Shown piece after piece: positions 1 to 4,999 of a stretch of 60,890 nt of DNA. The notes beneath the pieces are model-generated. The model was not told where the DNA came from, did no database searches, and saw only the letters and a program-made list of their open reading frames with translations. The stretch spans positions 1 to 60,890 of the forward strand of contig CAZGEP010000006.1 of assembly GCA_964524955.1 (NCBI GenBank), given 5' to 3'. A program made the position numbers and the translations under genes. The stretch's first letter is position 1, and every line of letters starts with the position of its first letter. The stretch comes from an uncultured Planctomycetota bacterium (GTDB lineage Bacteria > Planctomycetota > CAZGEP01).

Positions 1-169
1 TTTGCCTTTTGGGGTCGATATGGAATGAGGGATCTGTGTCGTCATGCTCCGGACAGAGGGTTTTGAAGCCGGAGCCGTTTTTGCGGATTTCCAGATACCG
101 GGAAACGACATCTTCAATCCGGTGGGTCTGTTTAATGCGGTTGATACGGTCCTTGAACGTGAGTTCCAT
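1..169 (-). CDS. CHC2 zinc-finger DNA primase (DnaG-type), 5' part, runs off the window edge
   Basis: Not in the ORF track. Manual translation from ATG at 169 gives MELTFKDRINRIKQTHRIEDVVSRYLEIRKNGSGFKTLCPEHDDTDPSFHIDPQKGK, which has the CPxHxDxxPSF motif of primase zinc-binding domains. Confidence 0.85.
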   Translation of the reverse strand, partial: MELTFKDRINRIKQTHRIEDVVSRYLEIRKNGSGFKTLCPEHDDTDPSFHIDPKRQ

Positions 170-467
170 TATGGATTCTGCCCTTTCTGCCCTTTCGGGC
201 GCTCTGTTCTCGTTTCTCCGCTCTGCGGAGACTGGAAAACATCCGGTCTTTGAGTTTTTCAAGTGTGAATTTCAGCATGGCAGCGTTTACCATGGCGCGG
301 CCTGAGCGAAAGTGCCTGGCGTGGCTCTCTACGCCTTTACCCGTAAAGACAAACTCGCAGTGTCGCTTGTTGCCCTGGTCCCGGACCGTAATCCGGGTAA
401 GCTCATGGCCCATGCTCAGAAGGAATGCTCCTTCGTACAGATCATGGATGTGGATTTGCTGTGTCAC
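132..467 (-). CDS. DUF5659-like small protein of a mobile element
   Basis: ORF 132..554; likely start is GTG at 467 after AGGAGG. DLYEGAFL..GHEL..I......CEFVF pattern. Overlaps the primase start. Confidence 0.6.
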   Translation of the reverse strand: MTQQIHIHDLYEGAFLLSMGHELTRITVRDQGNKRHCEFVFTGKGVESHARHFRSGRAMVNAAMLKFTLEKLKDRMFSSLRRAEKREQSARKGRKGRIHNGTHVQGPYQPH

Positions 468-510
468 CTGTGGATTCACCTCCTTTCTGTGAGTGGATGC
501 GAGCGCCCTA

Positions 511-539
511 TTGATTTGCTTCCCTGTTTGTGGTATAAT
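511..539 (+). promoter_or_regulatory. sigma70-type promoter pointing antisense to the primase operon leader
   Basis: TTGATT (511-516), 17 nt spacer, TATAAT (534-539) with an extended TGn. Confidence 0.6.
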
Positions 540-581
540 GGAAGGTGAAATCAAAAGGGCCTCGGTTCTTTTGGTTATCTG

Positions 582-634
582 GAGCCGTTAAACAGGTCTG
601 GCAGGACTCTGTGGTTTAACGGCTCTTTTTCTTT
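582..634 (+). terminator. intrinsic terminator-like hairpin ending a candidate ~90 nt sRNA
   Basis: Perfect 12-bp stem GAGCCGTTAAAC (582-593) / GTTTAACGGCTC (614-625), followed by TTTTTCTTT. Confidence 0.6.
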
Positions 635-690
635 GATACCCTGTCAAGTGCATTTATTTTATTTCTGCAATTATTTCTGATGTCTCGTAT

Positions 691-707
691 TTTACGATAG
701 TCGTAAA
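691..707. promoter_or_regulatory. palindromic operator candidate for the XRE repressor
   Basis: TTTACGA-TAG-TCGTAAA in the AT-rich divergent intergenic region. Confidence 0.45.
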
Positions 708-792
708 TTTAATCAAGAATAAAATCACTTTTTATTATATAGTGGTATAATGATATCTCCTTTGCATAGCACTTGTTTTACAGGAAACATAA

Positions 793-1149
793 ATGAAAGG
801 CAGAAAATTAAAAGGCTTTGGCGACAGATTAGCAAAACTACGTAAGAGCAAAGGCATGACTCAAGCAGAGCTGGGAAAAAAAGTAGGAGTGTCCTACAGG
901 GTTATCGCATATTACGAACATGAGTCAGGCCAACCACCTGGAGCCATGCTTGTAGACCTTGCAAAAGCCTTGCAAGTATCAGCAGATCAACTACTCGGAA
1001 TTAAGAAAGTTAAGGAAACAGAAGATCCGAAAACTGCTCGTATGGTTAAACGGTTAAAAAGAATCTCCCTTCTCCCCAAACAAGACCAGCAAGCGGTAAT
1101 GAAATTTCTTGATGCTCTTGTCCAAAAACAAACTGCTGAATCGAAATAG
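793..1149 (+). CDS. XRE/Cro-CI family HTH transcriptional regulator
   Basis: FGDRLAKLRKSKGMTQAELGKKVGVS..VIAYYE....P...L..LAKAL.VS.D.LLG. Confidence 0.95.
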   Translation: MKGRKLKGFGDRLAKLRKSKGMTQAELGKKVGVSYRVIAYYEHESGQPPGAMLVDLAKALQVSADQLLGIKKVKETEDPKTARMVKRLKRISLLPKQDQQAVMKFLDALVQKQTAESK

Positions 1150-1278
1150 GCCATCGTTTCCGTACCCCTGAATTCATACGCAACAGATGTTCAGACGAAT
1201 TGATTCCCACCACCCTTTTAGCGGAGTTTTTTATGGCCCGGGAGCCCTTCGCCCGCACCGCTCGCACACGCGCACGCT

Positions 1279-1348
1279 GCCACATAATGAGGTTATCCGA
1301 CGTTGGCCCAACTGCGGCCAACGTCCGATGAACCTCACATTATGTGGC
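1279..1348. repeat. imperfect inverted repeat made of two dif-like (Xer-type) sites
   Basis: GCCACATAATGAGGTTATCCGACGTTGGCC-caactgc-GGCCAACGTCCGATGAACCTCACATTATGTGGC; each arm carries a TTATGT core. Confidence 0.75.
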
Positions 1349-1691
1349 GCTGGAAGATTCCGCTTTTTTTGATTGGTTGTAAAGTGGAGGCGCGCAAACT
1401 CCCAGCACGCGGCCCGAGCGCGAGCGACGCAGGCGAAGGGCTCCTCCGTTACTTTCGTCTTGCTGTGCCATGGCCCGAGCCGGGTGACCGTTTTTGTCGT
1501 ACTGGCGCGACGTGATTCCCCGGTTGGGTGTTCGGGCGCGGTCTGGCCGGTGGAGGAAATGATTCGTCTGCAAGCTGCGCAGCCGATCATATCCTCACCG
1601 GGATAATCGTTTCTGGTGGTCTGCATTGTCCTTTCTTTTCCCTGTCTGGAGCATCACATCCCCGCACAGAGCCGATCCAGTGGCAGGCTTG

Positions 1692-1726
1692 CCGGGCGCG
1701 TCTTTATACTGCAAAGACGCGCCCGG
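1692..1726. repeat. perfect 14-bp inverted repeat with a 7-nt loop
   Basis: CCGGGCGCGTCTTT-atactgc-AAAGACGCGCCCGG. Confidence 0.85.
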
Positions 1727-1835
1727 ACTGCGCCTTCAAGGGGCTGCGATCCAAGATAATCGCATTCCATCAAACATCATAATAATCTGTTTAGCAGAGA
1801 CTTAAAAATTAGTGTCACTTATTTTAACTTATTTT

Positions 1836-2186
1836 TCATTTTATCTGAAGGACAGGCTTCAGCCATTTTATACTTAAATCACGTTCAATTATTAAATACT
1901 GCCCTGCAACCATTTTTTGGGTACAAATTATCGCGCTGCTCTTCTTTAAGCTTGGGTGAATTATTGATGTCCAATTCGATTTCTCGATTGAAACATTCCT
2001 ATCCTCGCACACTTTATCAATAGTAATATTGAGATCTATGTTGTCAATATCAATATACCGTGCAATCCATACAGCTTCATGTTCTAAAATCTTTTTTTGG
2101 GATAATTGATTGTTACAATGATACAGAAATGAAACACACAATGAAATAATACCAATCGTGATAAATATAAGAAATATCTTTTTCAT
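1836..2186 (-). CDS. putative immunity protein for the RHS toxin, with N-terminal hydrophobic anchor
   Basis: AT-rich ORF starting 4 nt after the RHS stop; begins MKKIFLIFITIGIISLCVSFLY. Confidence 0.6.
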   Translation of the reverse strand: MKKIFLIFITIGIISLCVSFLYHCNNQLSQKKILEHEAVWIARYIDIDNIDLNITIDKVCEDRNVSIEKSNWTSIIHPSLKKSSAIICTQKMVAGQYLIIERDLSIKWLKPVLQIK

Positions 2187-2190
2187 ATAG

Positions 2191-3447
2191 TTACTGTCCC
2201 ATTGTAAAACCACTTCCCAATCGAGTAATATCACTCAAATTAACAGACTTACCACATGATTTGCAATCTTCAAAATCTCTCGAAACACCTTCAAATGAGT
2301 CGGTAGAATAAAACTCGCCGAAAGTTATTGTCTCAATAGCTGCATTGTTTACAGCTTGGCACATAGAATCATTTGTCAAACTTGCATTTGGATTACGAAC
2401 CCAATGCCATAATTCATAGCCTATATCATAAGCACCCTGTTGTTCCGTTCCTTCATCATGTTCTGGATCAGCCCAATTAGCCCCCAAGAAAGACGTAGTC
2501 TGTCCGACATCCAATGCTGCAGCGACTATACCATATAGCACATTATTTGGTGCGGTATCTCTTACACATTTGCCGCAAAACCATACAGTATTTGTGCACT
2601 TACGTGTTGCACATCCTTCAACATTTCCTCTATACCAGAAGTCTATATTCATACCTATCTCAGATAATGTCCAAGCGCCATCCCAAGCACCTGTTTGGCT
2701 ATCATCCAAATTATTTAATTGGTTGAATATTCTAATTATGTATTGCCTAAAAGCAGCGGTCACGTCAGGCCCACAATAATCAATACAGGCTTCTGCTTCA
2801 ATTTCCTCAATAAAGTCTTCAGGACTTTGTGGAACAAAAGGATTCTCGGTTAGTCCCAGCGCATCCACCCCACTCATAACAAAATACGCCCTGTACAGAT
2901 TCAATCCATCCACATACCCGATTGGGTCCCGCTGCAGGAAACGTCCCCGACTTGTAGAATACATCCGGTTCCTGTAAAACATAAGATCAGCCTCGGGATC
3001 GTGCCGCCTACCCGTAAACAGATAATAATTCCCAGACAGACTTCCGGTCGTTTCATCACCATCCCACCAGTCACCGTCTCCACCGTCACCCGTATAAACG
3101 GACACAGCGCCATAAGGCTGATAGTTCTTGTACACTTCAATTATACTTCCGGAGGTATCAATTATGGCATGAACAGAATACTGAGTATTATGGAGATAAT
3201 AGAATTGTTCGTCAGTATCAGAGAAATCGTTATCGTCATTCAAGTCAGCCCTGGCAAACACCGGTTCATCGATATACACCCCATACCAGTAATCCCGCTT
3301 CAGGTCTTCATCCGAGTAAACCCGCTCTTCAATCACCCGGTTTCCATCGAGCACATAATACAGCTCAGTTTCCTGCGAACCGGACTGATCTTCATCCGCT
3401 TTTCTGTACACGCGGCGGTTCTGCGCATCGTATGAATACTCACCCAT
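2191..3447 (-). CDS. RHS repeat-associated core protein (orphan, N-terminally truncated) with Ntox44-like C-terminal toxin domain
   Basis: YSYDAQNRR, FTGRRHDPE, YRNRMY, GRFLQRDPIGYVDGLNLY and VDALGL cleavage motif; then NNVLYG..AAALD......GA....D....QGAYDIGY. Confidence 0.9.
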   Translation of the reverse strand: MGEYSYDAQNRRVYRKADEDQSGSQETELYYVLDGNRVIEERVYSDEDLKRDYWYGVYIDEPVFARADLNDDNDFSDTDEQFYYLHNTQYSVHAIIDTSGSIIEVYKNYQPYGAVSVYTGDGGDGDWWDGDETTGSLSGNYYLFTGRRHDPEADLMFYRNRMYSTSRGRFLQRDPIGYVDGLNLYRAYFVMSGVDALGLTENPFVPQSPEDFIEEIEAEACIDYCGPDVTAAFRQYIIRIFNQLNNLDDSQTGAWDGAWTLSEIGMNIDFWYRGNVEGCATRKCTNTVWFCGKCVRDTAPNNVLYGIVAAALDVGQTTSFLGANWADPEHDEGTEQQGAYDIGYELWHWVRNPNASLTNDSMCQAVNNAAIETITFGEFYSTDSFEGVSRDFEDCKSCGKSVNLSDITRLGSGFTMGQ

Positions 3448-3481
3448 GTTTATTTCATGTCCTTTTGTTTCTCATGTTTTC

Positions 3482-4801
3482 TTACTGAGTGGCTTTGGCG
3501 GTTTTCTCCTCTTCCGTGTAGATGACCAGATCATTGTCGTCGATCTTTTTGTCTCCCTTGATCAGGGTGCCGACTGATACTTTTTCCGCAACCTTGGTGA
3601 GCTTGATGGTTCCCTTGTTTACATCGGTTCCACCAACTTCTCCGAGCAGGGCAGCCACGTCATCACCCAGGTCTTCGCCTGTGTCTTCGTTGACGACTTC
3701 GATGCGTTTCATGACATTAAATATCATTCCCGGTTTGAGGCCGATGTTTTTTCCGCCCGCGATCACAATCAGGGTTGTGTCACCTTTTTTGGCGGTCTTG
3801 ACCACATTGGTGCGCAGTTTGGAGTTTTTGATGGTCGGGATGTTGATGATTTCATACACGGCCTTGGCCATGCAGCCCATGATGGCCCGGTCCATCCGCG
3901 CCTTGGTCTTTCTGGAAAATCCCATGCCTCCGGCTCCGGCTTTGCCGCCGCTGGCCTTGGCGCCGCCACCGAACATACCGAACTTGAAGTTGGCCACGCG
4001 ACCGGATCGTTTGACTGAGGCAATCACAACACCGGACTCGGAATCCACGATCTTGAATGTAATGGTTACCCAGGAGTTGGATTTTCCAAAACCGAGCGCA
4101 CCCAGGCCAAAACCTTTTTTGCCGGCTCCGCCGCCTGCGGCTCCAGCGCCCCAGGAGCTGGCATCGGGTACGTATTCATTGACCACAGCATCAATCAGGA
4201 ACTGCGCACCGAGAAGACGTCCGATTTTGGGGGCGCTCTTTTTCCAGACCCGTCCGCTGGCGCCAAAGTCCTGTTCTTTGAGGATGTCGCCCATGGTCTT
4301 CTTGCTTCGTTCCACCAGGGTAAACCGGCTGGTTTTGGCAAATTCAGCCATGAGTGAGGCTTCGAGACCGGCTACCGCAATACCGGCATTGGCGCCGTGC
4401 TTGTTCATCATGCTCTGAACGGAATCCGCCACCTTGAAATCCACAATGCCGAAACGCTGTTTGGGACCGTTGTATGCAGAGTAGTTGATCAGCCACCAGT
4501 AGTCTTCGGCAATGGACTTTCCCTTCAAGTAGTAGGTGTTTTTCTTGTTGTTGTAGTTCATCTTCTTGTCAATGAGCATGACGGACTTGCCTTTGTCAAA
4601 GTAGGGGAGCCACTGGGAGGAAAGAACGGGCTGCGCATCTTCTGTTTTGACCCAGTGAGCCTTGTTGGAGCTGTCGCCCCCTCCGCTTTCGATTTCTGTA
4701 TCGTCTGAACGTCCGCCTCTTCTGTCCGCTTCCAGCGGAGATGTAAATAGAACCGCCACCACTGCCAGCAACCCCATCATCAGATATACATGCTTCTTCA
4801 T
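3482..4801 (-). CDS. CsgG/HfaB-family envelope protein with FlgT-C-like C-terminal domain
   Basis: Signal peptide; RFTLVERS...ILKEQDFG.SGRV....PKIGRLLGAQFLI motif; C-terminal GGKNIGLKPGMIFNV...DTGEDLG. Confidence 0.8.
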   Translation of the reverse strand: MKKHVYLMMGLLAVVAVLFTSPLEADRRGGRSDDTEIESGGGDSSNKAHWVKTEDAQPVLSSQWLPYFDKGKSVMLIDKKMNYNNKKNTYYLKGKSIAEDYWWLINYSAYNGPKQRFGIVDFKVADSVQSMMNKHGANAGIAVAGLEASLMAEFAKTSRFTLVERSKKTMGDILKEQDFGASGRVWKKSAPKIGRLLGAQFLIDAVVNEYVPDASSWGAGAAGGGAGKKGFGLGALGFGKSNSWVTITFKIVDSESGVVIASVKRSGRVANFKFGMFGGGAKASGGKAGAGGMGFSRKTKARMDRAIMGCMAKAVYEIINIPTIKNSKLRTNVVKTAKKGDTTLIVIAGGKNIGLKPGMIFNVMKRIEVVNEDTGEDLGDDVAALLGEVGGTDVNKGTIKLTKVAEKVSVGTLIKGDKKIDDNDLVIYTEEEKTAKATQ

Positions 4802-4999
4802 GAAAACCTCTCCTGCGGCTTGGCCGCAAAAAAATGAATGTACGTGTTGATTGCTTGAAAAAATATACAGATTTATTTTATTTACCGCGCAATTTGAGTC
4901 AAGCTGGAAAAAATTTTTAAAAAGAATTAAAGTTATGGGTTAAGTCTGCCGATTAAATAACAGATACATTTTGTTGCATACTTTTTTTGGATAGCTGAA

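Follow-up and report, generated by a model that had tools for sequence, protein, structure and literature searches.

The window analyzed in this study, a stretch of 60,890 nucleotides, forms the start of contig C6 in a 379-contig, 5-Mb metagenome-assembled genome (MAG; G000) of an uncultured member of the Planctomycetota. At its left edge, the N-terminus of a DnaG-type primase gene (2..172, minus strand; CHC2 zinc ribbon, PF01807, 2.2e-11) runs off the contig start. One close relative of this primase was found, a protein of 920 aa that is 86% identical and contains DNAG_N and Toprim domains, and a search of the MAG for the rest of the gene recovered only the chromosomal dnaG. Block B (511..650, plus strand) is a small-RNA-like unit, in which an extended -10 promoter (TTGATT-17-TATAAT, preceded by TG) is followed by 80-90 nt that close with a GC hairpin and a T-run; the unit is kept to the left of the cassette, with a 94% copy on contig C368 and further copies in metagenome runs X3 and X4. 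The variable cassette that comes next contains an XRE-family HTH gene (793..1149, plus strand; Pfam HTH_3, 2.6e-13) and adjoins block C (1198..1752), a conserved and structured stretch of 555 bp that carries the hairpin examined here. A 114-140-aa ORF to the left of the hairpin had no family match. On the right, a cassette on the minus strand (1836..3447) comprises a 418-aa YD/RHS-like C-terminal fragment (2191-3447), labeled as RHS by eye and lacking a Pfam match, and a small downstream ORF (1836-2234). This cassette has the appearance of an orphan polymorphic-toxin-like cassette, and the divergence seen at 2879 (see below) is the usual look of swapped toxin tips. The remaining 57 kb of C6 are housekeeping DNA, beside which the hairpin is intact; a DUF1570 match found there points to the Planctomycetota. 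Because block C and a module at 1685-1751 are repetitive, the assembler could have joined element and chromosomal sequence into a chimeric contig. No rolling-circle, conjugation or other single-strand replication gene was seen in the element, which is cut by the contig start.

The hairpin itself is an imperfect palindrome of 70 nt at bases 1279-1348. The original prediction had read these bases as a pair of dif-like sites in inverted orientation whose spacers, of 5 and 8 nt, are non-canonical, and the sequence agrees letter for letter. The left site (1277..1303, minus strand) consists of the XerC-type arm ACGTCGGATAA, the 5-nt center CCTCA and the XerD-type arm TTATGTGGCAG, and the right site (1321..1350, plus strand) reads ACGTCCGATGA-ACCTCACA-TTATGTGGCGC with a spacer of 8. 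Each half is a dif-like site of the form 11-N-11, neither spacer measures 6, and the halves lie 17 nt apart; because both are arms of one palindrome, they do not count as independent observations. When bases 1270-1360 were folded as single-stranded DNA, energies of -28.7 kcal/mol (plus strand) and -30.9 kcal/mol (minus strand) were obtained, compared to an average of approximately -12 kcal/mol for shuffled versions (z of -7.8 and -8.8, respectively, with 0 of 200 shuffles folding as well), and comparison of the two strands revealed no strand preference. The stem spans 1279-1348 with 29 pairs, leaving 1298, 1326, 1330 and 1338-1339 unpaired below a 7-nt loop (1309-1315), so the predicted folded stem of about 30 bp with bulges in and beside the spacer is borne out, with extrahelical bases at 1330 and 1338-1339. 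From its base, the hairpin is made up of a XerD-arm duplex, a 5-bp center with extrahelical C1338-A1339, a XerC-arm duplex with extrahelical G1330 and a C1298/C1326 mismatch, a paired TTGGCC/GGCCAA extension and the loop. Bulging of G1330 and C1338-A1339 in the minimum-energy fold yields an exact host XerC arm and a center of 5 bp/7 nt; the right site then reads ACGTCCGATAA-CCTCACA-TTATGTGGCGC, and, apart from three extrahelical bases and one substitution, the two halves are the same 27-nt site.

Structure in block C extends well beyond the hairpin. An outer nested inverted repeat, I1 (1241..1444; arms 1241-1273 and 1412-1444, 82% complementary), encloses the hairpin and a branch at 1349-1411, a further nested repeat pairs 1192-1207 with 1555-1570, and a perfect 14-bp hairpin, I2 (1692..1726), marks the right end of the block. 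Folds of larger stretches of block C gave z-scores of -6.9 and -6.0. An intrinsic terminator, the alternative that had been raised at the outset as a possible refutation, is not supported: a terminator scan found none at 1279-1370, and no U-tract immediately follows the stem, as a T7 run begins only at 1364, 12 nt beyond the last pair. Contig C368 holds a further copy of 1199-1471 (98% identity, with an identical hairpin) behind a cassette made up of a different XRE gene and two ORFs, one weakly PIN-like and one of 63 aa, such that the hairpin is retained behind two different cassettes (C6 and C368). Rfam gave no match to 1-4000 at E up to 1, BLAST of block C against 61 relatives and 401 phylum genomes found just weak GC-rich matches, plasmid and phage collections contained no match to block C, and IMG/VR contained no exact hairpin and no relatives of the 114-aa ORF or the primase. 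At the right end of the block, the 1685-1751 module recurs on C358 (81% identity), where it is followed, on the minus strand, by a match to domain V-VI of a group II intron (31.3 bits; gathering score 40), and other block C copies in runs X1 and X4 run on past ~1752 into C358-like DNA. An element end at ~1752, considered on the basis of loose ends, was rejected, since on C358 the same module is followed by other DNA and the group II intron fragment.

A regular-expression scan of the MAG identified a host dif-like site, ACGTCCGATAA-TATATC-TTATGTTGCGG, at C111:157-184. At the level of the phylum, the pattern GTCCGATAA-N6-TTATGT was found with no more than one mismatch in 213 of 301 genomes, mostly in one copy per genome, and a reversed control pattern was nearly silent in the same scan. 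Because of this frequency, the predominance of single copies and the almost silent control, we infer that the motif is the dif of the phylum and the C111 site the probable host copy. The motif provides a usable consensus for a phylum whose dif has received little description; in its available text, the survey of Kono et al. (2011; PMC3025954) predicts no dif for the one Planctomycetes genome that it includes. The candidate dif on C111 lies 156 nt from the contig end, beside an infA-map-secY-ribosomal protein operon, with an extra inverted XerC arm 51 nt away (C111:236-244). The GC content of the contig, 41% compared to 49% for the MAG, counts against its being part of the host chromosome, but no other contig of the MAG carries SecY. 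In addition, contig C3 (72,087 bp, 41% GC) begins and ends with the same 33 bases, suggesting a circular replicon, and contains a near-canonical dif-like site, GTGTCCCATAA-TTATTA-TTATGTTAAAT, at C3:69941-69968. Two further likenesses were dismissed as chance, namely a dif-like match at C111:3982, which lies inside rplO, and a 16-mer identity with C18:29937, which lies within an lpxA-like coding frame.

When the arms of the C111 site were used to scan the whole assembly on both strands with spacers of 3-12, the C111 site itself (0 mismatches) was followed only by the two hairpin halves (3 mismatches in 22 positions, each in both C6 and C368), then by 5 sites with 4 mismatches and 25 with 5. Aligned with C111:157-184, the XerC arm matches at 10 of 11 positions (11 of 11 with G1330 bulged) and the XerD arm at 9 of 11. 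Outside the positions fixed by the generic ATAA/TTATGT criterion, the right half equals the host site at 10 of 12 arm positions (P ~4e-5, by hand binomial), and the dif likeness of the hairpin, as judged from these alignments, is beyond chance. The resemblance to dif that had been claimed is upheld in a more specific form, as the arms copy the dif of host and phylum and the halves are the closest matches in the MAG after the C111 site. This likeness stops at the arms: the hairpin centers (CCTCA and ACCTCACA) share no bases with the host dif center TATATC, and arm and pattern scans of the assembly found no other site with a CCTCA center.

Both Xer recombinases are encoded in the MAG, with the XerC equivalog (TIGR02224) on C78 scoring 347.7 bits (cut-off 335.15) and the XerD equivalog (TIGR02225) on C153 scoring 340.5 bits (cut-off 329.6). 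The MAG contains 20 tyrosine-recombinase matches as well as an integron integrase, intI, on C269; within 1.2 kb to the left and 58 kb to the right of the hairpin, ORF and Pfam analysis identified no recombinase gene. Contig C195 carries four genes on one strand: a 574-aa ORF (3184-4908), two genes whose products, of 371 and 292 aa, are Xer-like tyrosine recombinases, and an ORF of 351 aa (268-1323). The 574-aa product is 41% identical to the C-terminal part of the 920-aa relative of the window primase, the 351-aa product resembles, by eye, an Rpn-type nuclease ORF on C358, and no dif-like site with fewer than 7 mismatches was found on the contig. Elsewhere in the MAG, GC-rich attC-like elements at C124:13027-13057 and C334:1763-1791 are tipped by a palindrome of two XerC-type arms (CGTCSGATAA-N9-11-TTATCSGACG), which raises the question of Xer-type proteins acting there.

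To follow the locus in natural populations, contigs of four public metagenome runs were placed on positions 1-3000, and parts of these positions that lacked cover in runs X3-X5 were given no weight. Run X1 is a microbial mat and probably the source of the MAG, X3 comes from a salt lake and X4 from marine sediment. Depth in X1 was ~100 over 501-700, 8.5 over 701-1200, 83-127 over 1201-1800, 7.4 over 1801-2900 and 98 over 2901-3000, so that block C is approximately 13 times deeper than the cassettes on either side. Three X1 contigs join ~647 to ~1198 with other letters in between. Because of this variation and the differences in depth, the locus is read as two conserved blocks flanking fast-changing cassettes. 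The conserved blocks could serve ordinary homologous exchange. Within block C, an X1 unitig covering 1200-1369 is invariant at a depth of 38.5, and 1379-1600 is polymorphic with frameshifting indels, which speak against a coding function of the block. Runs X3 and X4 contain diverged copies of 1-427, 529-648 and 1200-1725. Across the many X1 variants the hairpin shows no change, and it is almost unchanged in X3 and X4. An X4 contig over 1264-1619 has 23 differences from the window, and among the 20 listed, those in the hairpin are at 1309 and 1310 (loop) and 1330 (bulge), all of them unpaired positions ((12/70)^3, ~0.005 by hand). With regard to the compensatory changes that had been proposed as a check, the listed X4 changes in the hairpin avoid its pairs, and changes in the outer stem go both ways, with 1240 and 1254 improving pairing and 1412 and 1422 breaking it.

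The positions at which variants part from the window do not coincide with the hairpin. Cassette borders were found at 647/1198, ~1750-1806 and 2879, the last being a point at which many variants diverge in all four runs, and the earlier idea that the hairpin swaps RHS cassettes is not sustained, since none of these borders is at the predicted crossovers (1292/1293 or 1331/1332). No dif-like site with 7 or fewer mismatches occurs at 647/648 or 1197-1200, and no joint or loose end at the hairpin was among those listed for the contigs of the four runs. The search for recombinant junctions that had been suggested alongside was likewise negative, as an arm scan and a short-word BLAST for half or hybrid hairpins found no hybrid dif/hairpin junction in the MAG, and none is listed among the contigs of the four runs. 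By analogy with CTX-type elements, an intact hairpin beside chromosomal genes does not look like the remnant of a single insertion of that type; a tandem array of elements with like sites would rebuild intact hairpins at its internal junctions, but the scans of the 60 kb showed no further site that could delimit the cassette on the right.

Scans for the hairpin pattern in other collections produced few full matches. The GTDB representative genomes contained two, both judged to be chance (coding or AT-rich), the JGI metagenomes contained two, of which one was real (L022) and the other (L023) chance, and IMG/VR contained one partial match (L024) and one chance match (L025). Among 401 genomes of the phylum, the inverted-XerC-arm pattern was found in three (G000, G266 and G238). 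L022 has the same architecture as the window hairpin, with flanks unrelated to the window and its own arm variant, ACGTCTGATAA. Its left part, GAACGCACATAA-CGCAGA-TTATCAGACGT, is separated by 30 nt from ACGTCTGATAA-TGTTAAG-TTATGTTCGTTC; the XerC arms pair perfectly, the centers form a bubble of 6/7 nt, and a GC-rich outer stem surrounds the whole (z of -8.5). A third dif-like site of the form 11-6-11, ACGTCTGATAA-AAGATC-TTATGTTTGAG, lies at 730 in L022, 3.3 kb from the hairpin, DnaA-box-like 9-mers cluster at 640-760 and 3230-3400, and an iteron-like array lies 600 nt from the hairpin. The proteins of L022 resemble hypothetical proteins of tailed phages. In L024, a dif-like site is accompanied by a single additional XerC arm in inverted orientation, and in G266, G238 and C111 a stray inverted XerC arm lies beside the chromosomal dif without a second XerD arm. 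A further viral scan yielded 17 loci. In some of them (L045/46, L047, L050 and L054), a dif-like core, ACGTCCGATAA-N6-TTATGT, is embedded in arrays of at least five XerC-arm copies in both orientations, and in viral loci L039 and L040 a XerC-arm hairpin with a TTATGG core adjoins an integrase gene. Nine stretches with relatives of the primase, taken from six other genomes, contained no full dif-like site. Because the viral and genome scans gave such varied arrangements, it is concluded that mobile elements of the phylum use dif-derived sites in several forms and that a full double site is seldom encountered in the searched collections. With regard to the contigs themselves, L045/L046, L047, L050 and L054 are large viral contigs with no integrase nearby (neighbors include HD, radical SAM, DUF7178 and dCMP deaminase), and the viral contig L024 has a match to the type II hammerhead ribozyme at 2469-2530 on the minus strand (34.4 bits; gathering score 37; E 0.00076).

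Among known systems, the closest parallel is the attP(+) of CTXphi (CTX-type IMEX; also RS1, Ypfphi and CUS-1phi). According to the available text on this phage (PMC4246890), attP(+) consists of two inverted dif-like sites with centers of 12 bp and 5-7 bp, located 90 bp apart beside a repressor gene, and it works only when the plus strand folds, upon which XerC exchanges one strand pair and replication completes the process; homology beside the XerC arm decides integration in this model (PMC4246890). Like attP(+), the hairpin consists of two inverted dif-like sites with unsuitable centers, its arms follow the dif of the host, pairing within the strand restores a single XerC-XerD site whose center has unpaired bases, and the site adjoins an XRE-type repressor gene. 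The differences are also clear: the halves are 17 rather than 90 nt apart, the centers are 5/8 rather than 12/5-7 and, contrary to the CTX requirement beside the XerC arm, lack homology with the dif of the host, which is a PVC-type bacterium; in addition, the primase is DnaG-type, and no filamentous-phage or rolling-circle genes and no hybrid junction were seen. What was originally predicted as a CTX-phage-style attP holds for the architecture. No single-strand replication gene was seen in the element as far as the contig start, and a DnaG-type primase is typical of double-stranded replicons; together with the tailed-phage-like proteins of L022, this is a point against the folded reading.

Two other kinds of site share part of this architecture. 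Integron attC sites, too, are imperfect hairpins; they imitate a core of two boxes, carry extrahelical bases on one of the strands and have a loop that varies, and the hairpin similarly lies between variable cassettes in a MAG that has an integron integrase on C269. However, it has no RYYYAAC/GTTRRRY boxes (the stem base is GCCACATAA / TTATGTGGC and the boxes are dif arms), no adjacent integrase and no cassette borders at the hairpin. The cer and psi sites of plasmids and the pdif sites of Acinetobacter are XerC-XerD sites of the form 11-N-11 on mobile DNA, as is the case here. Sites of the cer/psi type are single, have a center of 6-8 bp and are located on plasmids together with accessory sequences, and the right half has a center of 8 nt; pdif sites flank variable modules that include toxin-antitoxin genes and alternate in orientation. 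Those are single duplex sites exactly at module borders, whereas the hairpin is a palindromic pair within a conserved block, and no dif-like site is present at the cassette borders (647/648 and 1197-1200).

There are several readings of a hairpin with these properties. From its sequence, it is most likely a recombination site read by the Xer enzymes of the host, possibly as a folded single strand. The folded-strand mechanism is favored because its features match the published description of CTXphi attP(+), and we regard it as plausible at somewhat below even chances. When the strand is single, upon entry, during replication or through cruciform extrusion, 1279-1348 would fold, and the stem would rebuild one site composed of a XerD-arm duplex, a short center with extrahelical bases and a XerC-arm duplex. 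Host XerC and XerD could then bind, and XerC would exchange one strand pair with a double-stranded partner of the dif type, as for CTXphi attP(+). Both halves would presumably be inactive as duplexes. The mimicry of dif, the fold, the presence of XerC and XerD in the host, the conservation of the hairpin and the second, independent example in L022 were observed directly, and from these we infer that the proteins bind, that the strand is single, that strands are exchanged and which partner site is used. The claim of a folded single-stranded Xer-type site stands with regard to the dif arms, the fold and the enzymes, but centers unlike the host dif and the absence of a hybrid junction from the MAG and from the contigs listed for the four runs weigh against it.

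Compared to this reading, it is rather unlikely that the right half with its 8-bp center, or both halves, constitutes an ordinary duplex XerCD site in which the palindrome is incidental or accessory and which would serve to resolve multimers of a plasmid-like or phage-plasmid replicon, or to integrate double-stranded DNA in the VGJ manner. The dif mimicry of the arms would be expected of such a site, a primase and an adjoining small-RNA-like unit would suit such a replicon, and the iteron/DnaA-box-like array 600 nt from the L022 hairpin and its third 11-6-11 site at 730 point in the same direction. Plasmid XerCD sites with centers longer than 6 bp are known; on the other hand, we know of no function for a 5-bp center as a duplex. 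Double-stranded phages of the dif type also exist (as described in the available text of PMC12715192), and protein binding to each duplex half would conserve the arms equally well, but a duplex site leaves unexplained why an inverted copy follows at a distance of 17 nt, why the TTGGCC/GGCCAA extension is paired and why outer stems are nested around it, and the listed X4 changes avoid all paired positions. It is improbable that an Xer-like recombinase encoded in the missing left part of the element reads the site, with dif mimicry reflecting the shared ancestry of enzyme and site. The abundance of tyrosine-recombinase matches in the MAG, the pairing on C195 of two Xer-like genes with an ORF resembling the primase relative (41%), and the integrase next to a XerC-arm hairpin in L039 and L040 are consistent with such an enzyme; none, however, was found on either side of the hairpin (1.2 kb leftward and 58 kb rightward), C195 has no dif-like site better than 7 mismatches, and the arms are closer to the host dif than shared ancestry alone requires.

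Equally doubtful is a structural hairpin with another job, such as a single-strand origin or primase-loading site, a transfer origin or part of a large regulatory RNA, in which the dif letters would be a relic or a coincidence. Strong structure over 555 nt and a position beside a primase gene and downstream of XRE cassettes would suit these roles, but the dif match is specific (~4e-5 at unselected positions) and recurs in the unrelated L022 with its own arm variant, no Rfam family matches, and the nine primase-related stretches of six other genomes are without a full dif-like site. Finally, a functionless remnant left by earlier Xer-mediated insertions and now decaying is very unlikely. Stray inverted XerC arms do occur at dif in C111, G266 and G238 (3 of 401 genomes), yet the hairpin is invariant in X1 variants and nearly so in X3 and X4, both of its halves keep full arms, and the abundance of the block is about 13 times that of the flanking cassettes.

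With the preferred reading of a site for host Xer enzymes, the hairpin can tentatively be regarded as the Xer-type site of a family of integrase-poor mobile elements that is abundant in saline mats, its halves imitating the dif of the host. To our knowledge, folded single-stranded Xer substrates have been documented essentially for CTXphi-type filamentous phages of Proteobacteria, and the literature searched contained no report of a CTX-type site in PVC bacteria, although such an absence is not proof. The present case is unusual in that the host is an uncultured PVC-type bacterium, the element bears a primase and is not filamentous, and the hairpin lies in a block separating fast-changing cassettes. 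A far-reaching and improbable extension would be that PVC-type bacteria harbor an integrase-less, integron-like form of gene stacking that works through host XerC and XerD with hairpin dif mimics as sites, in which cassettes (repressor/toxin-antitoxin genes, and polymorphic-toxin tips with their immunity genes) would be captured and shuffled between copies of a folding module. If true, the folded-site reading would make the hijacking of Xer through folded DNA a broader strategy than is now known, and would link the exploitation of Xer to integron-like cassette dynamics.
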